Shown here: piece by piece, positions 14,903-64,000 of the stretch
How positions within the stretch are numbered: position 1 is the first letter of the stretch
Layout of the letters: each line of letters starts with the position of its first letter
Origin: Octopus vulgaris
Taxonomy: Eukaryota
Length of the DNA stretch: 64,000 nucleotides
Direction: 5' to 3'
Assembly (NCBI GenBank): GCA_951406725.2
Contig: OX597819.1
Location: forward strand, 22,568,001 to 22,632,000
The notes under the pieces: generated by a model
Database searches by the model: none
Told to the model about the DNA's origin: nothing
The model's input: the letters and a program-made list of their open reading frames with translations, nothing else
Translations under genes and position numbers: made by a program

Positions 14903-14970
14903 TCTGGAGTTTCTCGTTGCCGTTCATCAGACAGTTTTGCTGAACGGCAACGAGAAACTCAGAGTAACAG
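14900..14970. ncRNA. Tiny palindromic insert built from two partial hammerheads
   Basis: Composite ctgt-CUGAUGA-acg/gcaa/cga-GAAA-ctc-a-ga-GUA-acag. The minus copy keeps the core; the plus copy keeps the 3' strand of stem I. Confidence 0.6.
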
Positions 14971-15129
14971 ATTTTGTATATATATATATATATATATATG
15001 ATAGATACAGGTATAGATGTGTATGTGTGTATGTATGAGTCTATATGCCTATGTGTGTAATTATGTATTTCTATTTGTCCATATGTTGAAGAGAAAACAA
15101 AACTTAATAAATATATTTTGTTTTGTCAG

Positions 15130-17849: not shown

Positions 17850-20800
17850 GTATACGGGGACGTTTAAGATGTGAGGACAATAAAACAGTGCTCTGAAATC
17901 TATCCACAAACATCGAAAACAAAGACATTGTATGGAGCCAAAAATTAACTAACAAAGGATTGGACTATATCCGAGTAAGTAATACTCATTGAAATTTATT
18001 ACTATTTTCGAAACGAAATAATGTATTTTAACTCGATATCATCTCCACCTCTAACAAAACACATGTAAACATGCGTGGAAACATTACGATCCACCAACAC
18101 CAGATCATCCCCGACCCCAAACACCATGTACAAAAAAACTACGAAGAAATTAAATAACACCAATATTATTCAACCCAAGAATAACAATCGGGAGGTACTT
18201 ACTTTAAAATTACAACATAAAATGTACGAAAAACTACACGTGCAAAACAATGTGACAACAGAAATGAACGGACCGGTACCCTACGAAAATGACGACCGTC
18301 AAAATAATGGGCCAGACGTTGTTCCTCATGTCCCGAAGATAAAACCCAAAATACATAAATGGACACGTGAGGAATACATTTCTATCCTACACGCTTACTT
18401 TACAGCAGTGCTCTACCCAAAGAATGAAAACACAACAACACACACATATAAAATATGGAAGGAAAATAACATAAATATAGACTTGGATACAGCAATGAAC
18501 CCTAATAAACAAGCTAAAGTACGAAGATGCATTCTCAACGCAAAAAAATATCAGAAATAGAAATAGAACCTTTAAAAGAAAAAATACATCAGGAAAATGT
18601 AGATAGAAGCCACGCAACAATGCCCAATAATATAAACACTGAAACAGTAAAACACGAAGACAAACGAAACATTTCCAACAAACACGATGTAAACAAAAAA
18701 CAACAAACCCAGACCATAAGGATGCATAATAATACACGACAAACAGCAAGCCAAAATACGACAAACATACAAATGAGAAAGAAAGCGACACAAATCTAAA
18801 ACCTGGAAACATCCAAAGGGGAGCCTAATGATTATAATAATATAAAAAGTAGAATAATCAAAGAGCTAAAAACCACAAAGCTCAAAATGGACCACCGACC
18901 ATACCTCCCCAAATTCAAAATAGACAAAACAACAACATCAATTATAAACAGCATAAACCTAGCCGTCACGGAACTAATAGCCACTGAAACAAAAAGCGAT
19001 ATCACTGAGCTAAATAACTTAGTATACGCAGCAGCCACTGCAGCCACAAAAGAAGCTGGATACTCACTCAAATCCATCCAAACAGGAGTACCACCCCCAA
19101 ACAAACCCTGTGGATAAATATCATCCAAAACAAAATACAAAAAATGAGAAAAGATCTGTCGATTCTTAATGAAATCAGTAGACAATCAACGCTACTGAGC
19201 AACAAAAAGAAAACAAAAATACTCCGCAAATACAACATCACAGAAAAAGATTTACCTGAGATAAAAGAAAAGCTAAAGCAAGATATCCTTGCCAAAGCAC
19301 AAAGGATCCACCGGTACGAGAAACGCCAACGTTTCTTTGAAAAAACAAAAAGTTCAACTCCAACCCCAAAAAGTTTTACCAAGAACTTGGCAAAAATAAA
19401 ATAGAAATCACTGCAGCACCAACGGCAGAAGAAGTGGAAGAATTCTGGAGAGAAATATGGTCGGCGAACGAAGAACCAAAAAAAGGAGTATTAAAACAAC
19501 AAACTCAGCATCTGAGCAACTTTGGACCCCCATAACAACTGAAGAGGTCACCCAGGCACTGCAAAGACTAAGCAACTGGAAGGCACCTGGGCATGACAAG
19601 ATCCCCAAATCTGGTTGAAATATCTAACAACAATGCACAAAAAGCTGGCTGAAAACTTGAACAACATACTAGCAGAGCCAGAGACAATGCCTGAATGGCT
19701 CACGAAGGGGAAAACCATCTTAATTCCCAAATCAAATGAGACACCAAAACCAGAAAACTACAGACCTATAATCTGTCTCCCTACAATGTACAAGGCATTT
19801 ACTGCAGTGATATCGCAAAGATTGAACAAGCACCTGGATGAAAACAACCTGTTTCCAGAAGAGCAGAAAGGATGCCGCAAAGGCTCATACGGCTGTAAAG
19901 ATCAACTAATGATCAATAAAGCCATAACTGAAGACAGCCACAGAAAGAAGAAAGGCCTCAGTATGGCCTGGATCGACTACAAAAAGGCGTTTGATAGCAT
20001 CCCCCACACATGGATCCTCGAAACACTAGCCATTAACGAAATAGCACCAACAATTATAAAATTCATAGGACACTCTATGAATAAATGGCAAACAGTGCTA
20101 CAGCTCCAAACAAAAGAGGGGCTCATGAAAACCAAAGCCATCCCCATTAGAAGAGGAATATTCCAGGGAGACACGCTCTCTCCACTCCTTTTCTGCTTGG
20201 CACTGTCACCTCTATCCGATATGCTAAATAGAACTGGATGCGGATATAAATGTTATGGCAAAACGATCAGCCACCTTTTATATATGGATGACCTAAAACT
20301 ATACCCTGCAAATGACAAGCAGCTGGAAACACTATTAAAGACAGTTCGTGGATTTACCAAAGAAATAGATATGAAATTTGGATTAGAAAAATGCGCCAAA
20401 GTAACCATGAAAAGAGGAAAACTAGTTAAGAGTAGCAACATCACACTAGATAAAACCAATGAAATAAAAGAATTAGACCAAAGCCAAACTTACAAATACT
20501 TAGGAATCCATGAACTAGATAAGACACAACTACACAAATGAAAGAGAAAATAAAAAAAGAATATTATAGACGAGTTAGATCAATACTAAAAACAGAGTTC
20601 AATGCTAAAAACAAGATAATAGGTATTAACACTTTATCTGTCCCAGTTATAAGTTATAGCTACAATATCCTTAACTGGACACTAAATGAACTGACCAAAA
20701 TAGATAGGAAAACAAGAAAAATAATGACAGGATCTGGGATGCATCACCCAAAATCTGACATAGAAAGACTATGTATACAACGTATAGAAGGTGGTAGAGG

Positions 20801-21994
20801 CCTTATACAGCTGGAAAACTACTATAAAATAACCACCATAGGATTGCAAAAATAGCCACTTCAGAAGGAAGGAAAACTGATACAAATAGCGGCAAAACAC
20901 GAGCAAAACAAAAACTGTTCTCAGTATTTAAGGAAGCTGACAAATACAAACAAGAAATCATACCACCTAACAAATATGAAGAAGAAGAAGAAGAAGAAGA
21001 AGAAGAAGAAGAAGAAGAAGAAGAAGAAGAAGAAGAAGAAGAAGAAGAAGAAGAAGAAGAAGAAGAAGAAGAAGAAGAAGAAGCAACAAAAGCTATAAAT
21101 TAAATGAAATCCAAACTAAAACTAGAGCAGCAAAGAACCATGATATAACGATGGCAAGAAAAGTCCCTTCATGGTAAAGAAATAGACTAAGAAAAATCCC
21201 AGCAATGGTTGAGAAGCTCAGGACTCAAAGCAGAGAGAGAGGGATTGTTAATTGCAGCGCAAGACCAAAGGCTCCCCACCAGAAATTACCAAAAACATGT
21301 AATGAAAAGAAATATAACAAGTTACTGCAGAATATGTGGAGATGGACAAGAAACAATAAATAATATTATCTCTGGCTGCCCAGTCCTGGCTAAGAAGGAA
21401 TATATTCACGGACATGACAGAGTTGGGACCTACATACACTGGAAGCTATGCCAACATTATGGAATAACAACAGAAAAAAGATGGTATAGGCACACACCAG
21501 AAAAGGTCACAGAAAACGAGAAAGCAACCATACTCTGGGATATGCCGATACACACAGATAGAGAAATTAAGGCCAACAGACCAGATATAGTTGTCAGAGA
21601 TCATGAAGAAAAAAATGCTTTCTAATTGATGTATCAATACCAGCAGATGACAACGTGTCTCTAAAAGAAATGGAGAAACTTTCAAAATACAAAGACCTGG
21701 AAATAGAGGTAATCAGAATGTGGAATCTAAAAACAGAAACAATTCCTCTCATAGTAGGTGCATTAGGCATGATAAAAAAATATTCAGACAAATACATAAC
21801 AAAAACACCAGGAGTTACAAACACATATAACATACAGAAAATTGCCCTACTAGGCACTGCACACATCCTACGCAGAACACTTTCCATACAATAACCATCA
21901 GAGCATCACAAAAAATCACAGCACATACCCAAGGCACACAGAGGTGCGCTCGGTAGTGAAGTGAAAGCACGCTATCAAAATAATACTACTGATG

Positions 21995-24167: not shown

Positions 24168-24748
24168 ACAGGGTGGACTAAAAGGGTCTGACACATTTGG
24201 AGGCTTAATAAACGCACAAAATAAGAAATAATGAAAAGAAAACTTTTATTTTCTGAATGTACATATAATACCATTATATTTCATTAAGTTTAAAAAATTA
24301 AATCAGCTAAATGCTTCCCATCATTGTCAACACACTGTTGGAGACGTTCATGAAAGTTATCGATAACTCTATGGATCATTACTTCTGGAATGGTTGCTAT
24401 TTCTACACAAATTGCACGTTTTAATTCATCAATAGGCGATGACTGAATACTTTTGATATTAAATATCCCCACAAGAAGAAATCACATTTCGCCATTCCAG
24501 AAGAAATGATCCATAGAGTTATCGATAACTTTCATGAATGTCTCCAACAGTGTGTTGACCCAGCTTCCGGAGCCCTCTTTAGAACATGGTGGAATTTCTT
24601 GGCAGCAACTTTGCGTAAACTGTTATCTCCCAGCCATAATCTAGTTGACATTTTATTGATTCTTTGAGATACTTTTACATTGAGATGCAACAGAGCAGTT
24701 TTTTTTTTATCTTATTTGCAAAGTACCAAATTTAGCCAGAACACCCTG
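24168..24748 (-). mobile_element. Tc1/mariner-type deletion derivative with an internal inversion
   Basis: Termini cagggtg...caccctg, transposase C-terminus DELKRAI..ERLQQCVDNDGKHL, and inverted duplication 24325-24392 vs 24493-24560. Confidence 0.8.
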
Positions 24749-24899: not shown

Positions 24900-25670
24900 T
24901 GAAGATGATGTGACCACTCGAAAGAACTGACGGTGTACCCTGTCAATTTTTGTAACTTTGTGATAAGAGACTGTGACACTTTGCATTGTTTTTAATATAG
25001 GGTCTGGATTTAGAGACGATTTTCCATTTGATATTTAAATTGGTCCTTTCGTCTTCAAGTTCCCAGATTACACACGAAAGAGTTGTTGAATATCTTTTAT
25101 TTCGATCTGAAAACCTGGGTAGCAAACCTTGGGTAACAAACAGAGTCCATACACAAATAACTATTCACACACACAATTCATTGTGCCACTTATCATGAGG
25201 AAGCTACGCAGCTAACGACCTAAATTTTAGCCACTGGACTACATACAATCGACTCCTGTCCACTCTCGCACCAAACAGATTAAATTTGGAGTGCCAAGAT
25301 TATAACTAAACAAGATTATAACTAAACCCAACCGTGACAGCCTTAACTTACGGCGCCAAACATTGACAGTTGATACTAACACACGGACGTAGCGGAGAAC
25401 CTACAAAAGTTTCTAAGACCAGTCATGTGACTATCCTCAACCAATTAAATCCTATTCAAAACATATTAATTTGAACCATGAACCCTTTATAAAAATAAGG
25501 CAAACTTCAAACACTAGTCAGAAGCAAAACAGCTGCGACATAAACCAGGTCATTCTATTTGAACATTTTGAAAATCAGTGTAAACTGTGAAACCGGTTAA
25601 TGCTTTAAAAATATTAATACAAAATATTTTAACTATTCGCAGTGCATTCTCAACTTCTATTATTTCCTAT
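24900..25670 (-). mobile_element. Penelope GIY-YIG C-terminal fragment with adjoining inverted pLTR
   Basis: STTLS..IWELED....IKWKIV.....Y......C motif, next to the hammerhead-bearing repeat 25360-25670. Confidence 0.7.
25564..25602 (+). ncRNA. Minimal type I hammerhead ribozyme, U3:A8 core
   Basis: catt-UUGAAAA-t-cagt/gtaa/actg-t-GAAA-c-cg-GUU-aatg. Confidence 0.68.
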
Positions 25671-25671
25671 A

Positions 25672-26340
25672 CACAGAGTGTCCTAAAAGTCAGTGATGGG
25701 TTTCAGTTTTTAATAACTTACTTAACTTTACAAATAAATGCATGAAATTTTGATACAATACAAGTAAAGGACGAAATGGAAATTAATATGCACAAGTCCG
25801 TCAAATTGTGCAAAACCACTACATCACCTATGAAAATTAACATCACTTAAATGGCAGCCATTTTCGAATTTCCACGCTCGTGTTCTTTCCAAAACTTGCA
25901 CCATAACATCCTCAAGCGTTTCAGACTCCATTTCTCTGATTTCTCTATTGATGTTCTCCTTCAGTTGCATCAGGGTATCCGGTTTGTTCACGTAAACCCT
26001 CTCTTTCAGGCTTCCCCAAAAGACAATATCCAGGCTTGTCAAGTCTGTAGAACGTGAGGGCCATTCAAAGTAGACCTCGCACATGGTTCCAGCAAGATGG
26101 GACAACTGTTCATACCGCAAGAGATACAATGCAATTGCTACGGCTTTGGAGAGAGAATAATCTCCCGCTACGGCAATGTCAACTGGTCTTCACGTTCTCC
26201 AGACTTGACTAGCCCGGATTTTTTTCTTGTGGGGATACCTGAAAGAATGAGTTTACGTCAACAAAACGGAGACCCTGGTGCATCTGAAAGAGAACATCGA
26301 TAGAGAAATCACAGAAGTGGAGTCTGAGACTCTTGAGGCT
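25672..26340. mobile_element. Tc1-like transposase relic with an inverted internal duplication
   Basis: WPSRSTDLTSLD..FWG.LKERVY on the minus strand and WFQQDG..WSSRSPDLTSPDFFL on the plus strand. Confidence 0.8.
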
Positions 26341-26479
26341 TTAATGGCCTGAGGATATAGTATAAGAGTGAAGCTTGAGGGCTAGACAGAGACATTAATG
26401 GGATGAATGATGATGATATATGGATGATAAGGATGGGAGAAGACGAAAAGCGCCCGCCGACTTTCGCTTCTCTAAAACA

Positions 26480-28305
26480 TTGTTCTTTTTTCTTCTTTTT
26501 TTAAAAATACAATGAGGCAATAAATCTCTTACACAGTTCAAAATTTAAAATAAAACACAAACACGAGGCAATAATCCTCTCACTTTTTACATTTTTAGTC
26601 TCTTTTTTGAGGTAATACACCTCTTCAATTTTCCGCCCGGCCAGGCTCCTCGCTTCATCGAAGCACCTGAAGGAGTCCTTCGGGAAGGAGTCCGTTATCC
26701 TGTACAGATCGTTCTCCCATATGACCTTCGCAACCACCTGCGAAGGCCACTCAGGGTCCTCCGTGTAGGACAGAAGCCCCTCCCACCGGCACTTCCTTTC
26801 AATTTTTTTGATTTCCTTTTGCAAGGTGGAAGAGGAGCAAAAATTCCTCCTCCAGCCGCACACCCGCCAAAGGAGAATCGGGACACGCCTGCAGCGTGTC
26901 ACAACCCACCGGCAATGTCCCATTTTTCTTTTTTCTTTTCTTTTTCCCTTGGGCTGCGGGAGGGTGGTGTTCCCTTGCTGTGTCTAGCAGGTCCTCCTTT
27001 TCTCCCGCAGCTCTCGGGTTCTTCGGTGGGCAACCATTGTTGCTCACCTTTCGCTTTCGTTTTGTCGAGGAGGTGGAAACTTCCTCGACATCCTCCTCCT
27101 TCTCTCCCTCCATTGAGGGAGCAGGGAGTGGTTCCTCTGTTAACTGTCCCAGGATCCTATTTTGGTCCTTGGGGCAGTTTTTCTTGATATGGCCGGTCTC
27201 CAGGCAAAGGTGACACTTGGGGGGGGGGGGCTCTCGCGAGCATCACCGGATACCTAGACCCGACCATCCTAAAAAAATTGGGAAAACCAGACTTTCGGCT
27301 GATTGGGTCCATAGGGTCAACACAGCTTTTGACCCCTCCCAATCAGCCGCAGGCAAAATTTTTACGTTGAGCAGCTTAGTACTGCTACCACAGAGACCCC
27401 GGCGGATAGAGTCCTCTATCCACTCGGGCTCAATTCCGAGTGGCAAGCCGCAAACCCAAGCCCTCGTTAACTTCTTTCCACAATAACTGGGAAGAAACAT
27501 TATTTCCTTCCCCTCGAGGGGCCGTCTTGCAAAATCGCAAGCTTCTTTGGGAGAGTCAAATAGCAACCAGACCGTTGCAAATTTGACTTCCCGTGAAATA
27601 AATTTAATAGCTGTCATGTATTCTGCCAGCTCTTTCAAAATTGTGGCTTTCGGGAAGACGGTTATGGTATCGAGTGACTTTGAATAAGTCCTCAACACCA
27701 CCGTCTTCCTTTCGAGCTCTTTTAGCCATGATTTGGGAGGTGTTAATTCCCACACTAATATTTCCTTTGCCATATTTTTTTAAAATAAAAAGTTCAAAAA
27801 CAGTTCGTCAATACGTTTTCAAATAAAGAAAGATAGACAGAAAAAGAAAGAAGATACAACAGAAGGGAAGAAAAAATAAAAATAACAGTTCAAATAAAGA
27901 CCTTTTTTTTTTCAATAAATGATAGCTGTGAAAAGAGAGTTCAAATTCAGGCAAAGAAATAAATTTTCGGCTGAAAGGTACTCCTGGCCAATCCTTTTAA
28001 TCCACGTGGCACAAAAATTTTCAAATACAATTTCTCACAAGTATGTGAGACAACACACACGTCTCCACTGCAAGGCAGACAAAAAGCTCCGAATCTACTA
28101 AGGACTCCCTGCCTGTTGGACAGGCAACAAATCCTACCGGACTCAAAAAGCAAAAAGTCTTACCTTACAGCAGAGCGTCTTTCAGTTCAACTTTCGCCAG
28201 GTGCATACCAGCGTGACGACTTCAACGGGTGCGTGATGAACACTGTTTTTATTCTTTTTTCTATTTATGACGGAGCTCAAAGCTAGACGTTTTCACAGTT
28301 CAACC
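26480..28305 (-). mobile_element. Tx1/L1-type element, ORF1 (gag-like) only
   Basis: RRM-like ORF 27243-27773, CCHC knuckle (CHLCLETGHIKKNC) at ~27175-27215, and a charged C-terminus. No RT. Confidence 0.75.
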
Positions 28306-31671: not shown

Positions 31672-33046
31672 AAGAAGAAGAAGAAGAAGAAGAAGAAGAA
31701 GAAGAATAACGGGCTGAATAACAACATGGATGTTCCCTGGGAGCCTCTCTCCAAAAAATGAATTTAATCCAACAACATCGTTGCAATGGAAGAAAGGTTC
31801 CACAAAATATCTTTTCCAAACTTTCTTTTAAGGCAAAGTAACTAAAAAGTCCGAACTATTATTGCCATATATAGTATGGTTTTCTTTCTTTTATGCATAA
31901 TAATTCCATGTGACATGCATAAGAAATAGAAGCGAACATCAGAGCTCTTGAAAGACAGTAAGTACATAAATTGATTAATTAATTAATTAATTAAATAAGT
32001 ATACATGCAACTGTTTATGCATACACGTAGACATTTTAATTGTAAAGTATACATGCAACTGTTTGTGCATACATGTACACATTTTAATTATAAAGCATAA
32101 ATAATGCTTACACGCGCTCACACGTACACACAGAAAGAAAAACCACGTTACGCGAACGAAAACAAAACAAAAACAAAGCGATTTTTCACGAACAAACGCA
32201 AAAAAGAGCAAATTGGTCACTGAATTTAGAAAGTCACTACACAGTTATGCCCGGAAACATGACTACCAAAATAAATAGAGGCGAATTTCGATCTGTAAGT
32301 CTTATGCGAGTTCGATATGAACAATATATTAATTCGGAGAATTCAGAAGCGGTGTCTTGTCAAAAAATTGACCCTGTACAAACACTCCCTTCTTCTAACG
32401 ACACCGTCACAGAGGCGGCGTCTTGTCAAAAAGTTGACTCTGAAAAAATGGACCCCTCTGATGTCGCCGTCAATCATTTAATGAAAACAAGCCAAAAATC
32501 ATGCCGGATCGGTCATCGCCCGGGACAACAAGGACCGCGTTACCCAGTAGGGAACCAGACTGGGGTCGAAAAGTTTGCTGCTGGAACAAACTCTCAAAAA
32601 GACGATCTACCAGGTGACCAGAACCAGAATACTTCTATCTCTGGACTTGTAGTGACACCACCAAAAACACCACCTAAAGCAAAACGTATAAAATGGACCA
32701 GAGAGGACTATAGAGATGTGTTGAAAGCTTTTTATACAGCCCAACTAAACCCAAATAATAACCTCAGTGTACAAACATACATCTCATGGAGAAATTCAGT
32801 AGGCAATGACGTACGTAGATATATAGACGCAAATAAATTAAGTAATGTACGCAGAGATATAATTAAAAACAAAAGACTAACTGACGCTGAAATTGACAAA
32901 ATTAGGACACTGATAGCTCATGGTAGACCAAAGAAAACAGCAACAATGTAGAGGAAATAGGTAACAGTAGCACAGAAGCTAGTGTACAAGCGGCAAATCA
33001 ACTTCCCAATGGGGAAGTTAAACAAAGAATAGCGAAGACGAGAGAT

Positions 33047-35122
33047 TTGAAAAAAGAGGAGAACGTAGACCTTTCTCAAGAAAACCAAAATAGATATGAC
33101 ATAGAATTTGAGGTGAATAATAGAGAAAAGATTATGGAAGCAAAAGTGGACATTATGAGAGAACTTGGCAAGATTGAGCTCACTGACATGGTTAATAGAG
33201 AACCACTACCAAAGTTTTCAAATGGCACAAGAAATAACAACACAATCATGACATACAACGTTGCCCTAGGACAGATCTTAAGAAATAAGGGGAATGATTT
33301 GACAACCTTAAATAATCTCATTTATTCCACTGCTAAAGTAGTAACTACCCAACTAGGTATTAAGATGACAAAGAAAAAGGCCAGGCATGTCAATGAACCT
33401 CCTAAGTGGAAAGTAGCGATACAAAAAGAGATTGAATCTCTGCGGGCGGATGTTTCAGTTCTCGATGAGCTTGCTAGAGGAGTGAATATTAAGCCGAGAA
33501 AAGCTAGAAAAATCAAGCAAAAATATAAAATCAAAGATCTCATAAACCTCCCTGCAACTAAGGAACTGTTGAAACAACGGATACAGTTGAAAGCTCAACG
33601 GCTTAGAAGGTATGACAAAAGAAACAAATTTTATCGACAAAATAAAGTTTTTAAGACAGATGCAAAGAAATTTTATAGGGAAATTGGCAAAAATAAAATA
33701 CACATAGAAGATCCACCTAAGATTGAGGAAGTGGAGGAGTTCTGGAAGAAGGTATGGAGCAACGAAAAAGAGTTTAATGCTGAGGCTGACTGGATAGAAC
33801 GTGAGAAAGAGAGACTGGATGAACTTGAAGAACAGAAATGGGAAGCAATAGGAATAGAGGAGCTAAGGTGTGTCCTTAGGAAGGCTCATAAATGGAAAAC
33901 CCCAGGACTGGATCGGATCCCTAACTTCTGGCTGAATTGTTTGACAGAGGTACACGAACATCTCGCTGCATCTCTGTCTGATGTCATTCAGAACCCAGAG
34001 CAAATACCTGCTTGGCTGACTGAAGGAACCACCTACCTATTACCTAAAACCGAAGACACAAAAAACCCGAAGAATTACCGGCCAATAACATGTCTCAACA
34101 CCACCTACAAAATCCTCACATCCATAATAACGGAGAGAATGTACGCTTTCCTTGAACAAAATTCTATCCTTCCACAAGCTCAAAAAGGTTGTAAAAGAAA
34201 CTCTTATGGGTGCAAAGACCAATTGCTCATAAACAGAATGACTGTAGAGAATTGCCGGAGCAAAAACAAAAACCTGAGTATGGCATGGATAGACTACAGG
34301 AAAGCGTATGACAGTGTCCCACATAAATGGATACTCAAGGCCCTTGAGATATACAAGATCTCTCCTGTCGTCTCAAAATTCTTAGAGAATAGCATGACCA
34401 TGTGGAACACACGTCTCTTTCTAAGCCATAGTAATGGGATGAGCCAGTCCAACAGCATCAACATCAAACGAGGCATCTTTCAAGGTGACTCCCTCTCTCC
34501 ATTACTTTTTTGCATGGCACTGATCCCACTCTCAAACGAATTGGATAGTACCAGATATGGGTACAAAGTTTTTAGTAAATTAATAAACCATCTTTTCTAT
34601 ATGGACGACCTAAAGCTGTTTGCCAGGAATGACCAAGAGCTAGAAGGGCTGCTAACAACTGTTAAAGAGTTTAGCAATGATATCGGAATGGATTTTGGCC
34701 TTGATAAGTGTGCTAAAGCAACTTTTGTAAGAGGCAAGCTCAGGCAAACAGCTTCTGTTAAATTAGATATTGACACTACCATCAAGGAACTTGACCCACA
34801 GGAAAGTTACAAATACCTAGGAATCAACGAAGGAGATGGTATACATCATGCTACTATGAAGGAAAAAATAAGAAAGGAATACTATAGGAGAATAAGGCTT
34901 GTACTGAAGACTGAACTCAACTCCAAAAATTGCATTGAGGCCATTAACACCCTGGCACTTCCAGTAGTCCAGTACAGTTTTAATATCATTAACTGGAACC
35001 TTACGGAACTCCAACGCTTAGACAGGAAGACAAGAAAGTTACTGACATCCAAGAGCATGCACCACCCTAAGGCAGATGTAGACCGCTTGTACCTACCTAG
35101 AAGCAGCGGGGGAGAGGAATGA
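33047..35122 (+). CDS. Reverse transcriptase portion of the R4/Dong ORF
   Basis: YRPITCL, DYRKAYDSV, GIFQGDSLSPLLF, FYMDDLK and YKYLG motifs. Confidence 0.95.
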   Translation: MKKEENVDLSQENQNRYDIEFEVNNREKIMEAKVDIMRELGKIELTDMVNREPLPKFSNGTRNNNTIMTYNVALGQILRNKGNDLTTLNNLIYSTAKVVTTQLGIKMTKKKARHVNEPPKWKVAIQKEIESLRADVSVLDELARGVNIKPRKARKIKQKYKIKDLINLPATKELLKQRIQLKAQRLRRYDKRNKFYRQNKVFKTDAKKFYREIGKNKIHIEDPPKIEEVEEFWKKVWSNEKEFNAEADWIEREKERLDELEEQKWEAIGIEELRCVLRKAHKWKTPGLDRIPNFWLNCLTEVHEHLAASLSDVIQNPEQIPAWLTEGTTYLLPKTEDTKNPKNYRPITCLNTTYKILTSIITERMYAFLEQNSILPQAQKGCKRNSYGCKDQLLINRMTVENCRSKNKNLSMAWIDYRKAYDSVPHKWILKALEIYKISPVVSKFLENSMTMWNTRLFLSHSNGMSQSNSINIKRGIFQGDSLSPLLFCMALIPLSNELDSTRYGYKVFSKLINHLFYMDDLKLFARNDQELEGLLTTVKEFSNDIGMDFGLDKCAKATFVRGKLRQTASVKLDIDTTIKELDPQESYKYLGINEGDGIHHATMKEKIRKEYYRRIRLVLKTELNSKNCIEAINTLALPVVQYSFNIINWNLTELQRLDRKTRKLLTSKSMHHPKADVDRLYLPRSSGGEE

Positions 35123-36150
35123 TGCAATTAGAGCTGTGCTATAAGACCTCTACTGTAGAAATGAACAGGTACCTATCTAGTACAAAGGACTGGATGCTGC
35201 GACTTGTGTGCGAACACGAAAGCAACAAAAAGCTGCATTCTATTGTCAAGGAAGCTTATAAGTTCGAAAGGGAACTAGACATTAACCTTGAATCAGATGA
35301 AGAGCTGGAAACCACTGCTACCAAGCAAGCAAAGCGAATCAAGCAGACTGCAAAAAAGAACGGGCAGAATCAAATTGAGAGGCGGTGGAGCCAGAAGCCC
35401 CTGCATGGACAATATATTCTCCGAAGCCAAAATGCTGATGTAGACCAAGCAACAACCCATCAGTGGCTGAAGAGCTCTGGATTGAAAGCAGAGACTGAAG
35501 GTTTCATAATGGCAGCACAAGATCAAAGCTTGTTTACCAGAAATTACCAGGCTAACGTTCTCCGAAACGGTACTGACCCTAAATGCAGATTCTGCGACAC
35601 ATTTGACGAAACGATAGACCATCTCGTTTCGGGATGTCCTGTGCTGACACCAAACGAATACAAAAATCGCCACGATAGGGTAGGACAGTATATACATTGG
35701 AAGATATGTAAACACTACAAATCCGACACTCCTGCTAACTGGTATGAACACCATCCTCAGCCAGTTGTTGAAGGTAAAGATGTCACCATCCTCTGGGATT
35801 TTCCAGTCAACACTGACAGAACGATCAAGGCTAATCGACCAGACATAATTGTTAAAGACAGGGAAGAAAATACCTGCAGACTAATAGAAGTAAGCGTCCC
35901 CACTGATAAAAATGTATCTGTCAAGGAATTTGACAAACTTAGTAAATATAAGGACCTGGAAATCGAAATACAGAGGATGTGGAATCTTAAAACAAAAACT
36001 GTTCCTGTTATTGTAGGTGCCCTAGGTATGATAAAAAAGGGATGTCAGAAACACCTAGACAATATCCCTGGAAAACCATGTCTCAAGGAAATCCAAAAGA
36101 TTGTGCTAACAAGTACTGCCCACATCCTTAGAAAAACCCTATCAATGTAA
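35119..36150 (+). CDS. CCHC zinc finger plus restriction-like endonuclease portion of the R4/Dong ORF
   Basis: CRFC..ETIDHLVSGC, RHD, RPDIIV..IEV and KLSKYKDL. Confidence 0.93.
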   Translation: MMQLELCYKTSTVEMNRYLSSTKDWMLRLVCEHESNKKLHSIVKEAYKFERELDINLESDEELETTATKQAKRIKQTAKKNGQNQIERRWSQKPLHGQYILRSQNADVDQATTHQWLKSSGLKAETEGFIMAAQDQSLFTRNYQANVLRNGTDPKCRFCDTFDETIDHLVSGCPVLTPNEYKNRHDRVGQYIHWKICKHYKSDTPANWYEHHPQPVVEGKDVTILWDFPVNTDRTIKANRPDIIVKDREENTCRLIEVSVPTDKNVSVKEFDKLSKYKDLEIEIQRMWNLKTKTVPVIVGALGMIKKGCQKHLDNIPGKPCLKEIQKIVLTSTAHILRKTLSM

Positions 36151-42231: not shown

Positions 42232-42826
42232 CTACAGATTTAAAAAATAATTTTTCGTAACTAAACACTTTCAAACTTCGGAGACTGGTAGAATGTGTCA
42301 TATAAAACATCTTATACTCTTAGTATTTTTGAGAAAAACTTATATTTACGAAGTTATTTCACGTTAATGTTGTCCTATTTCGGTAATTTCAACCAATCAA
42401 TGACGTGTATTCAGCTGAATAAAATTACTGCTGTTGTTTCTCAACAACTTCCGGCGGTGTATATTTCGTTTGTCACTGTTATTTATGACATTGTTCGTGC
42501 GTTTGCACTGGTTTTAAGGTTTTAGGGTTAGGGTTTTAGGGTCAGGGTTGGGGCTTTTAGTGTTAGGGTTGTCATAAATAACTGACAAACGAAATATACA
42601 CTGGCGGAAGTTCTTGTTGACAAACAACAGCAGTAATTTTATTCAGCTGAATACACATCATTGATTGGTTGAACTTACCGAAATACGAGAACTTTAACGT
42701 GAAATAACTTCGTAAATATAGGTTTTTCTCAAAAATGCTAAGAGTAAAAGATGTTTTATATGACACATTCTACCAGTGTCCGAAGGTTGAAAGTGTTTAG
42801 TTACAAATTTATTTTTTAATCCGTAG
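42232..42826. mobile_element. Foldback MITE (~260 bp arms) with a telomere-like centre
   Basis: Arms are reverse complements (mirrored ORFs 42295+ and 42572-). The centre reads ttagggttagggttttagggtcagggtt. Confidence 0.88.
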
Positions 42827-43163
42827 ATTTAGATCCGAATGTTGTGTTATGAATATATATATTCTTTTATTCTTTTACTTGTTTCAGTCACCTGACTTCG
42901 GCCATACTGGAACACCGCCTTTAATCAACCCCAGGACTTATTCTTTGGAAGCCGGGTACTTATTATATCGGTCCCTTAGGCCAAATTGTTTAGTTACGGG
43001 ACGTAATCACACCAACATCCGTTGTCATGCAACGGTGTGTGGACAAACACAGATGACGCATAAATATATATAAATATTTATAACAAAGTGGAGTTGTAGG
43101 GTACCGCACGAATGGAATTATATACGAAAGAAGGTTTGAAAATGCAATTTAAAAGATGTTTAT

Positions 43164-43208
43164 TTACTTTACCGGTTTCACTCTTTGGAAAAAGATTGTC
43201 AAAAGTAA
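43164..43208 (-). ncRNA. Minimal type I hammerhead ribozyme, U3:A8 core
   Basis: ttactt-UUGACAA-tcttt/ttcc/aaaga-gt-GAAA-c-cg-GUA-aagtaa, with a perfect 6 bp stem I. Same sense as the Penelope ORF. Confidence 0.7.
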
Positions 43209-43824
43209 CATGTAGAAGTTTGGTTGCGTTAATTATTGGTTGTTACAAATTGCTACATTACATATATACAGTCTTTGGTAACAGGAACATGTTAAGGACA
43301 TAAAAAAGTTCAACAAGTTCCTTAAAATAAATAATCGTTCTCAAGGACATGCATAAGATAGCTTCCAGAAGGAATTGATATTGGTATTGGTATTGTATCT
43401 GTATATTCAAACATGCACAGAATATTGGTTGACACAGAGTACTACAATCCATATAAATATACATTATATGGTGACAAGAGCATGTTGAGAATATAAAAAA
43501 GTTTAACAAGCTCATTGAAATAATGGGCACAAAAGATTACAACAAATATATTATACATTCTCAAGATAATTTCCAGAAGGAAATATTAAAAACGTTCAGT
43601 ATACACGTACAGAATATTATGAGTTCAAAAAGATTTACATTATAATAGTAGTGAAGCCAAAACTGACCTGTCCGCTATGGTAGCGTAAAAGAATATTATC
43701 TATTTCAAGGGACACAGTAGGTGTGTTTGGTTGTGGGGAAATGGAGGAGTAATGTGGAACTGAAAAGAATTTACCCTTTTTTTGTCTCTCCTTCAAGCAT
43801 CAACGATTTAGGGGTCAGGATGGG

Positions 43825-45750: not shown

Positions 45751-47384
45751 TATGTTAGAGTATGTTTAGTTGTGGTCTGTATTTTTGAATAAGATTATTT
45801 TCCCTATTTATTCGTGTTTGGTCTGTGGTGTTGTCCGGGCATTGGTATAGTGGGAAAACTAAGAATTTTGGGGACTTATTGTGTGCACAGAGGTCTAAGT
45901 GTCCACTTAGTGGTATCTGTCTTGTGGAGGGGTCCCTCAGTTGTTGGCGGTGAACTGTCATTCTTTCTTTGAGGGTAAGGCTCGTTTGCCCTATGTAGTC
46001 TTCTACCATATGACGTAGAGTAATTTTTTTGATGCGCACGTGAAATTATTTTTTATGATGAATGTGTATCCCGACTGGAACTTGTATGTCGATCCCTCAA
46101 TGAGGTGGATGCAAGTCCTGCAGTTGGGACGACCACATTTTTTGACGGTGGGCGGTGGGTTTGTGTTGTGTAATTTTGCGTTGGTGAGGAGGTTTTTTAG
46201 GGATTTAGGCTGTCTCTTACTTTTTATCATTTTATGAGCTGCCGGTAATTTTTTTAGGCGTGGGTCTTGATTTAGCTGTGGAATGTTGTTGTATATAATA
46301 GTGTAAGCTTCTGCATTTCTTGGGTTGTGAGTTGAGAGGTAGGTCAGGCTATTTACTGTACTGTAGATGTGTTTTGGTTTTCGTAAGTCTTGAGTGTTAA
46401 TTGAGTTGGCCCGTTCTATTCCGTTGTCCACTAGTGATGTCGGTTAATGTCTTTCGAGAATAATTGCCCTTAGTTCCCGGAGTCTTCTATTTCGTGTTGT
46501 GTCATTTGAGACAATTGTGCAGATTCTTCTCGCAAAGTTGAAGGGGATATATGTCTTTGTGTGTTTTGGGTGATTGGAGGTGAATAGAAGGTATTGTTTA
46601 GAGTCAGTGGGTTTGTAATGGATATCAGTTTCAATGTTGACGCCTTTTTTAATGATTAGAATGTCAAGAATAGGAAGTTGGTCCTGACTATATTCCATTG
46701 TGAATTGAATGGGGTTATTTACACTGTTGATAAGATTTTTGAAGTCAATAAGTTGATCAAGTGTGTGGGACCATAGGATGAGGCAATCATCTAAGTAGCG
46801 TTTCCAGTTCTCCAACAGGTATTTGTGGAAAGACTGGCCGTACTTATATTTGGATTTTTCATAAATATCTGACTCCAGGTAGGCCATCACCAGGTTTGCA
46901 TAGGTAGGGGCAACTTTCGTACCCATTGCAGTTCCTGAAACCTGTCTGTAAGTGTTATTATTGAAATTCATGAAGTTATTTTGCAGAATAAATTTGAGGC
47001 CCTCAATGATGAATTCTTTTTATTATTTATTCCGGGATCTCATTGGGATATTTATCCAGCCAGAATTTAATGGCTTCCAGTCCATATTCATGTGGGATCG
47101 TGGTGTAAAGGTTTATTACATCAAAGGAAACGATTAAAGTGTCTTTATCGGTAAAGTAAATAAACATTTTTTAAATAGCATTTTCAAACCTTCTTTCGTA
47201 TATAAATATATATATATATTTATATAATTTTTTCAGAATGAGCTAAAAATCCAAGGTCTTACAGCTGTTTCCAGGATATATAACGTTGGGCTTTTATCAG
47301 CCTCCGCCTACAAAAATCCACTTATAAGGATTTTGTCGGCCCGAGGCTATAAGTAGCAGACACATGTGGTTGGGAAGCAAGCTT

Positions 47385-50823: not shown

Positions 50824-52494
50824 CTTTATTTCATTGGCCATAAAAGCTGTACATAGAGGGGAAAGCACAAAGTGAGGACAAAAAAAAAAATGAATGGAAA
50901 AGATGAATTTAACATAATGAAAAAATGAAATGAAGCCGTTCGACTCCATATCCGAGAGACTTCATTAAGCATGTTAATACAACCCTCTTTTTGAAAACAT
51001 TTACTTAAACTATCATTGATATTGCCTTTGTGACAGCTACTTTTCATTTTTAACACAAAATGTTTATCTTAAACTTTATAAAAATAACAACCCGTTCTGG
51101 CATTGTACTGGTGTCTATCCCCTTGACCCATCATTCATAGTCGTAGTTTTCCTCATAATTCTTTAATTTGGCATCATACAGCTTATGTACCCAGGCAACC
51201 CCTTCAATCTTGTTATATCCACTTTTATGACTCTATTCCGCGAGTTTATCTCGTTATCAAGTTTTTCATTTCCCCCATCGTTCAGTAAAATATATCTTTC
51301 ATTACCGGGCAAGGGTGGGGAAATTTGGAGCTCTTGTGTGCTTTTGCTTGTCTTTATGTCAGGTAGGGCATGGAGAGGGTTGGTGTTTGTAAGGAGTGGT
51401 TGGGGCCGAGTGAGTGTGGGTGGGAGTCGGGCAGGTATGGGATGAGGGTCGTCATTTGCAACGTATACGCTTTTTCTTTCTTTTTTTTCTTCCCAGCCAA
51501 TTCTCATCCATTCCTTTCCTCGTTCACTTCCTCCTCCTCCATGCTGGTACTAGTTTTCGTCGGTGACGTCTCAATTTCCCCCATTCTCTTGTTTCCCTTT
51601 ATCCTTCACGGGTGGTGGAGAACAGTCCGTTCTAATGTAGCCTTTGAGGTCACATTTATAGCACCGCAGGATCCTTCCTTCCACTCTAACTCTAAGTGTT
51701 GCCTCTCCGACCGTGATGGTCTCGACCATCTTTTCAATATCCTCCTCTTGTACAACCATATCAAGGCTTTGTCCTTGCCAGTTCCTGTGGGGTGTTCTGG
51801 TGGCCTGGAGGACTACTGCCTTCTCCATGCCTAGCAGTATGGCAGCTACCAGCCAGGCTACATCCACCTCTGGGGATATTTCTTCCGCGCTAACCCTGGA
51901 AGCACGTCTCCCAATGTATACGGGTAGAAGAACCAATTCATCAGTTTTTAATGGTGTGGTTGAGTGCAGTCTGGCGATAGCTATCTCTTGAAACTGCACT
52001 TCCACTGTTCCGTACTTTCTTCCCATGGCAAGGTAGGATATCTCTTGCCAGACTAGCCGTAATGCATTTTCAACTTGTGCCTCCGACACCGCTTCTATTT
52101 TCCTTGTTGCTAACGCGTATGTCCTGTAAACAATCGTTTTCTCTTCCTTATCCTTTCAAACGTCTTTAGAGTGGGGGACAATTTCAGGGCGTTCCTCTCC
52201 CTCTTATGCATTTCCACGAACTTGCTCAGCTCTTCCAGATTTATATCTTCAATTTTTCCCTTTGCCACTGCAGTGTAATTGCTTGTTTCTATTGCTGCCT
52301 CAATCTTGTTCAAACATTTCACCATTTCTTCCTGAGACGACACAAATTCTGAAGAAGTATAATTTAAATTCTCACAGCTCATCACACGACGCCCCTCCAT
52401 TAAAGAAGAGGGAAATCGTCGCACCGCCAAGACAACCAAAAATCACGTGTGCTATTCACAAAGACAGCTGTCGAACTAAACAAAACGCAATACC
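50824..52494 (-). mobile_element. Tx1/L1-type element B, ORF1 only
   Basis: ORF 51571-52089 with RCYKCDLKGYIRTDC. The 5' end is homologous to element A and the 3' end to element C. Confidence 0.82.
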
Positions 52495-52507: not shown

Positions 52508-53990
52508 CTTTATTTTATGAAATCGGACACGAAGGCCTTACACAGAGGGGACAGCACAAGGTAGAGACAAAAAAAAAGAAAAAAAACAGAACGAACGAAA
52601 AGAATGAATTAACATAATGAAATATTAAATGAAGCCGTTCGGTTCCACCTCTGAACGACTTCACTGAACCTGTTAATACAACACTTTTTGAAACACAATT
52701 ATTTACACCAGTTAATCACCATATTTTCTTTATTTTTTTCAGAATGTCTATGTCATATTTCTTTTGATATCGACATACCTTATCCGTTCCGGCATTATGC
52801 TGGTGTCTAGTTTTTTGACCAACCACTCGCTGTCACAATTTTCCACACACATATTTTCCTTAGAGAGCTGCGGTGAGTAAGTTTGAGGCTTCTGTGTGTT
52901 TGCACTTGTTTTTATGTCAGACAGGGCATGGAAGGGGGGGGGGGAATTTCCGTACGGAGTGGTTGGGGTAACTGGTGTGTGTGGGGGCCGAGTGGGTGTA
53001 GGCTTGGGGGGGGGGGTCATCCTTCACCATGTGTGTCCTCTTTCTTTCTCTTTTTTCCGCCATTTCCCAGCTGGTGTTTGCCTCCTCTTCCTCGACGCTG
53101 GTACTTGTCTTCGTCTGTGATGCCACATCACTTCCTTTTCCCTCCACTGGTTGTGGAACACCAACCCCTTTCTCACTCACCTGTCTCTCCTTAGACTTTT
53201 CTAGTGGTGGACAACAATCCACTCTAATGTGGCCTTTCAGACCACATTTATAACACCGCGGAATCCTCCCTTCCACTCTAACTTTCAACGTTGTCTCTCC
53301 GACTGTGATGGTCCCGAACATCCCTTCATAATTCTACTCCGCAACCAGCACAACCACATCAAGAGCCCGTCCTAGCCAGTTTCCATGGAGTGCTCTGGTG
53401 GCCCGGAGGACCACCACCCTATTATCAGTGCCCAGCAGTACGGCAGCCATCAGCCAAGCCACATCCACCTCAGATGGGCACCTCCTCTACCCGAAACCCG
53501 GAAGTACGCTTCCAAAGGTATATGAGTAGAAGAACCACTTCATCCGCTCTCAGCGGTCTCACTGAGTGCAGCCCGGCGGCAGCTACCCGTCCGTCTCCGA
53601 ACTGCACCTCCACCGCTCCAAACCTCTTTCCTCCGGCAAGACAGAAAGCCAGATTGGTCCCACTTCCCCTCCCACCTGAACCACCGACACAATCACGATC
53701 CTTCGGGCCACCACTGAGCATGTTCACCAAATTACAGTCTCCTCCACTGCGTCTCCTACAACCTCTTTGGGGCGGAGCACCTTCACCTCGCTCTCCTCCC
53801 CCAAGCATTCCCCTGAACTTGCTCACACCCTCCAGCCCCATGTCCTCGCTCCTTTCTTTCGTCGCAGCATCTCAACTCCCTACCTCCATTGCTTTGTCCA
53901 TCATCCCCAAACACTCCACCATCCCGCCCCGCAGACGACACAAAGTCCGGAGAAGGGCATTCCACAACGTCAGAAACAGAACAACTCAAT
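52508..53990 (-). mobile_element. Tx1/L1-type element C, ORF1 only
   Basis: RCYKCGLKGHIRVDC knuckle. The 3' UTR is shared with element B. Confidence 0.82.
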
Positions 53991-56262: not shown

Positions 56263-56617
56263 AAATTACTATTTGTAAATCTCACCACAAGAGATATTCA
56301 GCAACAGTACTTTGGAGTAAAGATTATTTGCCAACATAACATGGCAGTCCTGGTTTAGTACGAATATTGTTGTAATTTAGCTCCAGCTGGCTATACGGCA
56401 CGATCTGTGTCCTTATATTTTCGAACAAATGGATCTATCAACCCCACTCGGAAATCGCGATACACATATTGTTTTGAGCTGAGTGTGTGTGCTAGAATCC
56501 GTTCTTCGAAAGCATAAGGACACAGATTGTGTCGTATAGCCACCTGGGGCTAAATTACAGCAACATTCGTCCTAAACCAGTACTGCCATGTTATGTTGGC
56601 AAATAATCTTTACTCCA
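56263..56617. mobile_element. Foldback insertion (~125 bp arms) bounded by a 15 bp direct repeat
   Basis: Arms 56312-56436 and 56493-56617. catttattggataga occurs at 56248-56262 and 56616-56630. Absent from copy 1. Confidence 0.85.
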
Positions 56618-59144: not shown

Positions 59145-59200
<56 letters not shown>

Positions 59201-59204
59201 CATG

Positions 59205-59267
<63 letters not shown>

Positions 59268-59268
<1 letters not shown>

Positions 59269-59753
59269 ATAATAATAAATATTAGGGAATAAATCCAAAT
59301 TTACAGGGAAAAATCAGATTTAGGATTGAATCCAATTTTATAGTAAAATATTATATAATATTAATTAGAGACAAAACCACTATTTTGCAAATCAAACAAG
59401 GAAAGACTTAATCAATACATAAAAAAAAATTAATATAAAGTAAATAAATCGCCACTACAATTGTTTCCTGTCTTCAAATGACATTCATCAGGTGGATTTC
59501 ATATCTAAAAATATCAATATTTTAAAAAATAAATTTAAAATGGCTAATACTATAATATTATAGTATTAGCCATTTTAAATTTATTTTTAAAAATATTGAT
59601 ATTTTTAGATATGAAATCCACCTGATGAATGTCATTTGAAGACAGGAAACAATTGTAGTGGCGATTTATTTACTTTATATTAAAATGTTTTTTTATGTAT
59701 TAAGTCTTTCCTTGTTTGATTTGCAAAATAGTGGTTTTGTCTCTAATTAATAT

Positions 59754-59760
<7 letters not shown>
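59268..59760. mobile_element. TA-inserted element containing a ~400 bp zero-spacer palindrome
   Basis: Axis between 59556 and 59557. A related diverged piece lies at ~5590-5880. Confidence 0.92.
59618..59661 (+). ncRNA. Minimal type I hammerhead ribozyme (mirror copy 59452-59495, minus)
   Basis: ccac-CUGAUGA-a-tgtc/atttgaa/gaca-g-GAAA-c-aatt-GUA-gtgg. Confidence 0.85.
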
Positions 59761-59818
<58 letters not shown>

Positions 59819-59824
<6 letters not shown>

Positions 59825-60320
59825 GTTATCGCCATACTAATATGGCATTCTTATAAAAATAAGAAAAAAGCTGTCCGCTTATTAGCTCCATGAGGCCATC
59901 GCCTTAAGTTAGCTATTTGATACACAAACTGTATCCATATAACCTTCGAACAAGGGAGGTCAGTCGCTCCACACTACTTGACCGGCAGCTACAGACGCGT
60001 TTCGGGGTATTGCCCCTTTTCAATGCAGCGACACCTACTGGCTGGCTACGCTGCATTGAAAAGGGGCAATACCCCGAAACGCGTCTGTAGCTGCCGGTCA
60101 AGTAGTGTGGCGCGACTGACCTCCCTTGTTCGAAGGTTATATGGATACAGTTTGTGTATCAAATAGCTAACTTAAGGCGATGGCCTCATGGAGCTAATAA
60201 GCGGACAGCTTTTTTCTTATTTTTATAAGAATGCCATATTAGTATGGCGATAACTATTATTTTCCGGGAATGCTGCCGCTGTTCTCTTTTAGAGAGACTT
60301 AGTTATTTTAATATTTCTAT
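59819..60320. mobile_element. TA-inserted foldback element, ~212 bp arms, 18 bp spacer
   Basis: 59819-60030 and 60049-60260 are near-perfect reverse complements. Confidence 0.93.
60050..60091 (+). ncRNA. Minimal type I hammerhead ribozyme, U3:A8 core (mirror copy 59988-60029, minus)
   Basis: gctgca-UUGAAAA-gggg/caata/cccc-GAAA-c-gc-GUC-tgtagc. Confidence 0.82.
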
Positions 60321-60591: not shown

Positions 60592-62260
60592 CTTTATTAT
60601 AGGCACGATGGCCCGAATTAAGAGGGGACATTACAAAACAGGACATGGGGTACATATAATAAAAAAAATCGAAAAGTATGGTATGATAATGAATTATTTA
60701 TAATGGGTTAATGGAATGTCTTACGAGTTCCCCAAGCTCGCAGTTTCATTTAAAATACAATTTTGTTATACTGGGTATTCATCTGTAATGTGATCGAGTA
60801 ACCTCACCTGGTCTACATTAGCTGGCAAACTGTCATAACGGATATATTGCATTACGCATACAGCTGAAAACACACTTTTCAATTTCATCATTGTCTCTTT
60901 TTCCACAATCGCCGCCTTCACCTGATCATCAAATATTTTGGGTTTTAACTTTACTCTGATTAAACTTTTCTTATTTGCTAGCTTCTTTTCAATTTCTTTG
61001 TCCTTCACGTACAATATTACCACTTTGAGATTTTTTCCCTTGGGTTTTCCTCCTTCCTATATATACTTTTAACTGCTCTTCCACTCTTCTGTCCCATTCT
61101 TCCCCTGCCTTTAAATTTGCCGGTTCTCTCGCTTTCGCTTCTGCATCCTTCTCTTCGTACGTTCGATCCTCCATCTCGTCGGTAGTCTTCTTTTTCGCTT
61201 TATTCTTTATTTGTACTTTAGGTTGTGATTCCACCCACGTTCTCTTTCTATCTTCTTTTCCTTCTGTGCTTTCCTTTTCTTCCTCCTTCACCAACTCGTC
61301 ACCACTTTCCACATTATCTGTATTCACAATTTCTTCTTCTACATCCGCCATTTGCAATTCCTCTGTCAGAGCCTCCAATGTTATCATCTCCTCTTGTACT
61401 TTTTTTTCGGACACACATCCTTCATGTGGCCTCTAATCTTACATGTGTAGCACACTTGGGGTCTCCCCTCTACCACGACTCAGTCGTGTCTCGTCGGGGA
61501 ACACCAACTCTTCTGGGATGTTATACATGTCTGGCATGGTTATGTGTACCAACGCTTGTACTGCATAACCCCACCACTTTACTTCCTTCGACCTTTCTAT
61601 CTTCAATATCTCGACATTCTCCTCGCAGTTAAATATTGTTGCTGCTATAATTCGCTCCATTTTCAACTCTGGTGAAATTTTGCTGATTCTCATTCTCACC
61701 GCTCGTCTTCCACAATAGTTAGGTAGTAATAGCCATTTTTCATTTTTCAATATTTTTGTAGCGTTCTTCTTTGCTTCAGCTTCGTTCTCAAAATGAACTA
61801 CCACCGTCACGTACTGTCTACCTCTATTATAGAAAGTAGCTTTTTCTTCAATCTCCTGCAAACACCTCTCAATTTCCTCCACCTCTGCCACTTCTATTTT
61901 CTTCGAAGCCACGTTCCACGTTCTATATGTCACGATACGCCTCTCTGCTTCTTTCACTTCATCCTCCGGCAGTGCGACTCTCAGGCAGTCACCCTCCTTC
62001 TTGAAACCGTTGAAGTACTCCTTCAGGCTCTCCTTCTCGACGACCACCTCCTCCAACTGCAGCTCGCTCGCAGCCAGACCCCTGCCCGCCGCTCCTGCAC
62101 AAGTGTGGGCCTGCATTTTCGAAAAAAAACTTCCACACTTCACCACGCTGCAACAGCTTCTACCAACGAACTCGAGCTCACAACCCCTACACACAACAAC
62201 CGCAACACAAATCAACCGTCTGTATATGGAAAAACAGAAAAAGGCCCAACACTACAGTCA
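60592..62260 (-). mobile_element. Tx1/L1-type element, ORF1 only
   Basis: ORF 61439-62215 is homologous to the other ORF1s (RGRQY.TV.V.F, LLLP.Y.GRRA). Frameshifted CCHC knuckle, acidic tail, ends in AATAAAG. Confidence 0.8.
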
Positions 62261-62329: not shown

Positions 62330-64000
62330 TGACTATATGACCAATTTCAAAAGGTAAACCAGTCAATTCTAAGGTATTTCCAACGTACACAAAAGTAACG
62401 CATGCAGGATAGTCACAGACATAATAATCAAAGTCCCTACTCCTAATGACCTTAAATTGAGCTATAATAGCAGGTCTCGCATGCGAAACCCACCGCCTCA
62501 GTAACTTTTTAAATACCCTCTTAAAACCATTCCTGAAGCATGTCAAAAGCTATATAAGGGACGACCTGGATGTGCTCAATCACCTTCCTGAAACAATAAA
62601 CAAAAACACCCTTCTACGCCAACGAACTCCCACATCACTTCAAAAAAGAATCGTGGACTGCGATGGGTAAGAGAATGGACTCCTCCTTTTCTAACTTAGT
62701 CATGGGATATCTAGAAATTAATCTTTATCGTAAGGTTTTAGAAATATACGGCAGCCTATTTTACCTCTACATAGAAAATAACTGGAAGAGATACCTGGAT
62801 GACTGTTTCATTATTTGGCATGAAACTATAGAGAGACTTAAAGAATTCCAAGCACTTTAAATGGACTTGACGTAAACATTCAATTCACGATGAAATACAG
62901 CCATCAACAACTTTTTTTCCTCGACATCCTCATTAAGAAATCTAGAAACGTAATAGGAACAGATGTATACTATAAGCCCACGGACTCCAAGCAATATCTA
63001 CCGTTCAAGTCATGCCATCCAAGACACACCAGAATGAATATCCCCTTCAACCTAGCAAAAAGGATATGTACTATAGTTTCTAATGCAAACACCAGAGATA
63101 TACGACAACATGAACTAAAGGATACACTCATCACTAGCAACTACCCACCTTCACTAATTGACATATGCTTTCAACGTGCCCTTCAACTCAAAATCCACGA
63201 ACTCAGACATCCCAAATTAAAGAATGATTTACAACCAAAAGCCCTACCATACATCTCCACACACAACCCTCTTAACAATGAAGCCTTCGACACCATCCTT
63301 CAAAACATTCCCCTGCTAAAAAAGGACCACAGAATGAACTGAATCCTCCAAACAGACATCATCATAAAAAGCCAGTGACAACCCAAATCTATGACAAGTC
63401 TTCTAACACAAGCCCGAACATGCTCAACAACAACACAGAAGCCGTCAGTAAAAAAATGCGGAAGACCCAACTGTGGGATATGCGTCAGCTTAATTGAAGG
63501 ATCAGAATTTTCTTTCAAACAGGGACAACGTTTAACAGTGAAAAGCAGCTTCACATATACTTCGGAGACCCTGATATACGCACTAACCTGCTCTGGGTGT
63601 CAAGAGCAATACATAGACCAAACAAAAAACAGTACGTGAAAGGATGGCTCTGCACAGATCCCAGATAAAAAATTTCCCAAAACAGAAAAATAGCATTCAG
63701 CCAACACATCGACATTTGCACCAATAACAAAAATCCAAGCTTCAGAATTTTTCCCCTCTACCAATTCGGGGACAATATAACCTGGAGCCAACGAATTAGT
63801 AAAGAGACTCTCTTTATTTCAAAATACAGACCCCATTTGAACGCGTCTACAACAAAAGACATAACCACTACGGCCCTAGAATAACACAAACACACACGCT
63901 AAAAATGATACGCTAAAGAGATTCCCAAGAATTCATTAAGAAACAGTCCAAATCACTGCTATAATCAATAACAATTTTAGGTCACTTGAACATTTAACAT
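62330..64000 (+). mobile_element. Penelope-like element, degenerate RT + GIY-YIG
   Basis: RYLDD, YKPTDSKQYL, CGRPNCGIC and LIYALTCSGC..YI.QT. Internal deletion and stop codons. Confidence 0.9.

Follow-up and report, generated by a model that had tools for sequence, protein, structure and literature searches.

A 491-bp unit set in a (TA)n tract of the 64-kb stretch of DNA analysed here (the window) is, on balance, probably a single insertion of two 5'-truncated 3' ends of one repeat, joined head to head and built by priming on both DNA strands (Table 1). The palindrome that it contains is real and no artefact, and each of its arms is the 3' stump of a hammerhead-bearing repeat that is very abundant. 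This repeat is likely a Penelope-like element (PLE) or a non-autonomous rider on one, and a PLE-type origin of the locus as a whole is highly probable. A preliminary description, made from the letters alone, had placed the palindrome axis at 59556/59557 with no loop, and this was borne out: symmetry at that point is perfect for 32 bp per side, compared with 0 to 2 bp at 12 neighbouring axes tested, with ATAT at the center and no spacer. Both hammerheads that it had reported were located at the same places. Its unrelated ribozyme palindrome, about 60 bp off in the same (TA)n tract, was found at 59819-60260, with an arm that aligns to the studied arm at a score of 30, the same as shuffled sequence (30). 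The unit itself had been given as about 400 bp (59353-59760), which captured the palindrome but fell short in extent, since the tail at 59269-59353 belongs to it. The ends of the whole are asymmetric, with the 85-bp tail on the left side only. Global alignment of the two 203-bp arms gave 197 identities, two mismatches, and eight gap positions, an identity of 197/199 over aligned bases.

Table 1. Features of the insertion and its flanks, with positions counted along the window
Feature	Positions	Strand	Support
Left (TA)n target tract, with C/G interruptions	59147..59268	.	sequence
Candidate TSD, left copy (at least 10 and at most 16 bp), C-marked in TA tract	59259..59268	.	
One-sided 85-bp tail, the long 3' end of the repeat family	59269..59353	-	depth high in 4/4 runs; TA-repeat loose ends
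Left arm, pLTR-like; 3' end of the repeat, truncated on its 5' side; sense outward	59354..59556	-	
Type I minimal hammerhead, left arm; predicted cut at 59456	59452..59495	-	
Perfect 64-bp palindrome core around axis 59556/59557	59525..59588	.	axis-crossing contig, run X1
Right arm, inverted copy; stops at the family's short 3' end, no tail	59557..59759	+	
Type I minimal hammerhead, right arm; GUA, predicted cut after 59657	59618..59661	+	
Candidate TSD, right copy; only C of the right tract	59760..59769	.	
Right (TA)n tract, common to the next insertion	59770..59820	.	sequence
Neighbouring insertion, separate but built alike: arms of 212 bp, spacer of 18 nt, U3-A8 hammerheads	59819..60320	.	

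Part of this stretch is contained in at least 20 of the 24 listed sequencing runs, which carry five organism labels, and the contigs of four runs were compared with 59266-59600. No RNA run was listed for the stretch, which counts neither for nor against anything. Summed contig depth, which is no copy number, fell in all four from about 0.4-3 million over 59278-59409, through about 8,000-150,000 over the ribozyme, to 400-1650 just before the axis (59542-59553). Part of this drop of more than 1000-fold, at 59410-59430, reflects sister families diverging (loose ends behind 59424). On the minus strand, the profile has the shape of a 5'-truncated retroelement. The tail is the same repeat as the arm and among its most abundant parts in the four runs. 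Two family 3' ends were marked by TA-repeat loose ends, a long one before 59269 (X1, 13 contigs) or 59278 (X3, 20; X4, 19) and a short one before 59352 (X1, 14; X2, 33). The long end belongs to the left arm and the short one to the right arm; the short end is also where an older, palindrome-free relative at 5590-5690 in the window stops. Other copies run beyond 59555 into non-palindromic sequence, with depths of 52-368 in X16, X3, and X4; hence, the axis is the truncation and inversion point of this locus and not a fixed feature of the family. The loose ends gave at most 30 letters of this continuation, which reads CTATA AATAA TATA where the junction in the window reads CTATA ATAT TATAG.

A PLE-type origin is well supported because a minimal hammerhead, a gradient of 5' truncation, two fixed 3' ends, a one-sided tail, a candidate TSD, and a (TA)n target occur together. 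The hammerhead lies near the 3' end or in the pLTR, as expected of a PLE, with its cut about 100 nt from the short end and 190 nt from the long one. Truncation at the 5' side is heavy, if the fall in depth is read with its contribution from sister families, and an inverted 5'-truncated copy is joined head to head. The optional tail between the two 3' ends measures 85 bp, compared with 30-40 bp in published cases. The candidate TSD in the (TA)n target is a C-marked direct repeat of 10-16 bp flanking the unit, for which a rough post hoc estimate of chance occurrence was ~0.001 on window-wide C density and ~0.04 on local C density. PLE insertions have been reported with an inverted pLTR, a tail, a TSD of 8-10 bp, and junction palindromes (PMC3846280), and with (TA)n targets (PMC8557442). 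The inverted pLTR, one-sided tail, candidate TSD, and (TA)n target seen here are that published footprint, and each PLE insertion feature that was tested is present. The head-to-head layout is already known for the class, and the locus adds no new kind of element.

Like Pen2a, Pen2, and Pen3a of Adineta vaga (PMC3846280; layout in the Fig. 2 legend of PMC8557442), the locus has head-to-head inverted ends and a junction palindrome, and it shares a one-sided tail, a short TSD, and an AT-rich target with the EN+ PLE insertions of that species (PMC3846280). Unlike the latter, it has no ORF between its arms, is only 491 bp long, and bears a tail of 85 bp rather than 30-40 bp, and no linked autonomous copy was found. 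The Poseidon PLE of Anolis (PAc) likewise has two fixed 3' ends separated by the tail, an AT-rich target, and a hammerhead near the 3' end; however, its ORF start overlaps the ribozyme, whereas no coding frame is linked to the arm here (PMC11167929). Hydra- and Naiad-clade PLEs also target (TA)n, and Hydra elements bear canonical hammerheads, but these clades are defined on protein motifs (PMC8557442) and the arm is assigned to neither. Animal non-LTR retrozymes resemble the repeat in being non-coding, in their type I hammerhead, and as proposed PLE riders, yet their units are arranged head to tail in tandem (bioRxiv 10.64898/2026.07.22.740005). No such tandem occurs at this locus, where the only two matches to the motif in the window form the inverted pair.

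The preliminary description had attributed the locus to Penelope-type reverse transcription, and the anatomy (truncation gradient, two 3' ends, tail, candidate TSD, and (TA)n target) agrees with this, but no ORF was linked to the arm. The autonomous Penelope with a matching pLTR that it had looked to did not materialize within the window, where no arm match was found beside PLE-like RT/GIY-YIG frames. Metagenome scans with the ribozyme 3' half and with the family end returned 0 loci each. A decayed RT and GIY-YIG frame at 45755-47019 (-), in which RVT_1 scored below the cut-off (E 1e-4) and GIY-YIG above it (23.1 bits), shows that putative PLE machinery is present in the genome. The end of this frame gave no match to the studied arm. 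It is 68% alike over 249 bp to a second decayed PLE-like frame at 62400-63900 (+), the end of which does not match the arm either. A PDB search with the PLE-like RT piece gave 0 matches, and the frame at 62842-63342 had no Pfam match.

Under priming on both strands, a PLE RT/GIY-YIG complex would nick the AT tract at positions staggered by 10-16 bp, and the stagger would give rise to the TSD. One nick would prime cDNA from the distal RT start site, producing the arm with its 85-nt tail, and the other would prime cDNA from the proximal start site, producing the arm without a tail. An A/T-only point about 60 nt upstream of the ribozyme is where both cDNAs would halt, and their self-complementary 3' end (the central ATAT) would let them anneal, since cDNAs of like sequence can pair with each other only by ends of this sort. 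Two cDNAs stopping at one point would leave zero spacer, and one running further would leave a spacer. A PLE protein has been shown in vitro to nick both strands of AT-rich DNA and extend them, and to start RT at two sites, the interval between which is the genomic tail (PMC11167929). That the short arm stops at a fixed end used family-wide agrees with two RT start sites and priming on each strand, and this reading, with A/T microhomology at the joint, would fit the locus better than fold-back does. Weighing against this reading are the tail length (85 bp vs. the published 30-40 bp), the need for a stop, as yet unexplained, that halts two cDNAs at one point, and the need of ATAT annealing for a donor shorter by one ATAA unit. 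Such a donor could plausibly arise by slippage but was not observed. A search of titles found none relevant to twin priming in Penelope.

Arm sequence cannot separate twin priming from fold-back, the mechanism that the preliminary description had preferred. Here the insertion would be of the same PLE type, with the mirror arm made by self-priming of a stalled cDNA on an A/T micro-hairpin and with self-copying ended 85 nt short by an endonuclease or a fixed stop. We regard this as possible but rather doubtful. The idea is not new, having been published for PLEs in PMC3846280, where junction palindromes are interpreted as self-priming, and PMC8557442 attributes tails to EN-mediated resolution. 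In agreement with fold-back, the two arms share their starting base and hardly differ, TATA-N5-TATA spans the axis point in the family sequence, and the neighbouring palindrome retains an 18-nt spacer, like a loop. However, the micro-hairpin predicts a 5-nt AATAA spacer and the window has ATAT, the stop of the short arm is the family-wide end also used by the palindrome-free copy at 5590, and the in vitro reaction extends both strands, with the tail mapping to the interval between the RT start sites (PMC11167929). The absent spacer lends fold-back no support: priming from a hairpin requires a loop, which the family sequence predicts to be non-palindromic and 5 nt long, and the window lacks it.

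Improbable is an insertion that had a spacer or unequal arms and was later perfected by cruciform resolution or intra-arm conversion. The 11.7% GC of the palindrome core would suit such a history, as would the distribution of arm differences, with six of the eight gap positions and one mismatch grouped about 125-150 bp from the axis and one mismatch in the inner 120 bp. Yet the outer 50 bp of the arms are identical as well, the differences fall in homopolymer or short-repeat runs, and the candidate TSD is intact. Very improbable is a fixed palindromic unit (MITE or foldback DNA transposon) moving as a whole. The palindromic shape and candidate TSD are compatible with it, and the window also has palindromes without hammerheads, but depth drops from about a million at the ends to hundreds shortly before the axis and 15 beyond it, the sequence of other copies goes on without a palindrome, and the ends of the unit are asymmetric. 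Copies sharing the whole palindromic unit with symmetric ends, as a MITE or foldback element would have, were not found. Repeat annotators could mislabel such stumps as MITEs.

The axis was crossed by one listed contig among four runs (17 of 25 records listed), from X1, with a depth of 15 and a span of 59505-59571, 15 nt past the axis, fewer than the 31 nt set as the rule for bridging, and X1 is possibly the sample that was assembled. Contigs of X16, X3, and X4 did not cross the axis and those of X2 did not go beyond 59565, although contigs show presence, not absence. With contigs built at what we take to be k = 31, a stop at 15 nt past the axis is the limit for a 31-mer contig at a true hairpin. 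Least probable of all is an assembly or library artefact in the form of a fold-back chimera, for which speak the single run in four, the 15 nt, and the possible identity of X1 with the assembled sample, and against which stand the expected contig stop, arms that differ at 10 alignment positions, unlike a chimera of one molecule, the candidate TSD, and the same design at three other loci.

How PLEs make tandem and inverted insertions is an open question (PMC8557442), and a small clean insertion with a tail, a TSD, and a known donor continuation is one useful data point on PLE insertion. More speculatively, zero-spacer junctions may be the product of two PLE cDNAs on opposite strands, with start sites 85 nt apart and ATAT annealing, in a family possibly equipped with a working A-G hammerhead variant. 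We hold this wider proposal only tentatively; if it is true, zero-spacer junctions counted across the family would settle twin priming vs. self-priming for Penelope inversions.

The same type I hammerhead occurs on both arms, sense outward, in the order CCAC, CUGAUGA, A, a 4-bp helix II with a 7-nt loop, G, GAAA, helix III, GUA, and GUGG. Helix I has 4 bp and helix III 2 bp within a self-complementary 8-mer. A descriptor scan gave eight matches in the window, compared with a mean of 0.075 in 40 block shuffles. Rfam returned no hammerhead at the gathering threshold or at E-values up to 10, and its hairpin microRNA matches were far under their gathering scores. The preliminary description had spoken of a canonical minimal hammerhead. 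The minimal type I core holds (C3 U4 G5 A6 N7 G8 A9, G12 A13 A14, A15.1-U16.1, and H17, with helices I and II), but canonical does not, since on both arms the first apposition of stem II is A with G in place of the closing pair G10.1-C11.1. No variant at or above 5% was listed at either base of this apposition (59468 and 59484) in four runs. Changes listed within the motif fall in N7, loop II, and helix II, with N7 (59487) the only listed core substitution among family contigs.

Minimal hammerheads of metazoan PLEs are described as having one additional base behind A9, the pair G10.1-C11.1, and a helix III that is palindromic, as being of low activity and active only as dimers, and, in Schistosoma, as occurring in opposite-strand pairs 100-700 bp apart (PMC4209133). 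Those reported by Cervera and de la Pena 2014 (PMC4209133) share with the present motif the intact core, the 4-bp helix I, the unpaired base after A9, the palindromic helix III for dimer formation, and the opposite-strand pairing; unlike them, it lacks G10.1-C11.1 (A opposite G, then U-A) and has a helix II of 4 bp, not 6-8. PMC3088659 discarded matches mispaired at 10.1-11.1 yet notes a natural U-U case. No A10.1/G11.1 variant was found by title in the literature, and the supplements of PMC4209133 and PMC8557442 could already show A-G. The predicted active monomer fraction was 0.5%, and the two-strand MFE showed a dimer topology with an energy gain not beyond that of shuffles (35% of them as good). 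In the wider proposal above, the A-G variant in place of G10.1-C11.1 might need a trans dimer, or else the protein of the element, in order to cut; it is a cheap ribozyme variant to test.

A cis-acting double hammerhead or regulatory switch was considered and rejected on account of the opposite strands and the absence of predicted folding in read-through RNA, with a predicted pairing probability of 0.000 for stems I-III in RNA of the whole palindrome, where a 200-bp hairpin is predicted to enclose the ribozyme. As the ribozymes lie on opposite strands, no single transcript carries two sense hammerheads. That the pair works as a device is unlikely on these predictions; the inversion passively brought both hammerheads with it.

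The preliminary description had implied that such a structure is rare, but four hammerhead palindromes lie within the same 64 kb. In each of the four, one end lies within 0-3 nt of (TA)n, and the distance at the other end is 89, 60, 72, or 11 nt. In the neighbour, a tail of about 60 bp follows the palindrome on the right and the 18-nt spacer lies next to the ribozyme. The third (13542-13935, composed of 13542-13863 and a 72-bp tail) has a helix II region of about 65 nt and a spacer of about 55 nt, and adjoins another hammerhead element across a (TA)n tract. In a tiny palindrome in (TA)n at about 14900-14965, or 14900-14976 with its 11-nt tail, a hammerhead was read by eye with a 2-bp helix II and A opposite A, its right copy having a deletion in the core. 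U3-A8 hammerhead-like ends whose helix II has U facing U at its base were seen at 12887-13518 (+), 43060-43672 (-), 25349-25671 (+), and 5158-5495 (+), which represent two more repeat families. Departures from the canonical 10.1-11.1 pair thus look common in this genome. Older palindromes without a hammerhead match lie at 24326-24559, 25901-26347, 42232-42826, and 56313-56617, one of which encloses TTAGGG-like repeats; two of the four we take to resemble mariner-derived elements.

The window is AT-rich animal DNA with many microsatellites and retroelement fragments. Four related gag-like ORF1 fragments lie on the minus strand (27243-27779, 51571-52155, 52917-53333, and 61439-62251), three of them with a CCHC-like knuckle inside the frame or directly behind it; the three that were scanned had no Pfam match. 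Rfam placed a 5S rRNA copy at 6929-7047 (-) and a U6 snRNA copy at 14302-14407 (-), both probably retrocopies, the latter adjoining palindromes at 14432-15019. Two long copies of non-LTR retrotransposons, both with RVT_1 and with a zinc motif at the C-terminus, were found at 18069-21625 (+) and 32094-36150 (+), the second nearly intact.
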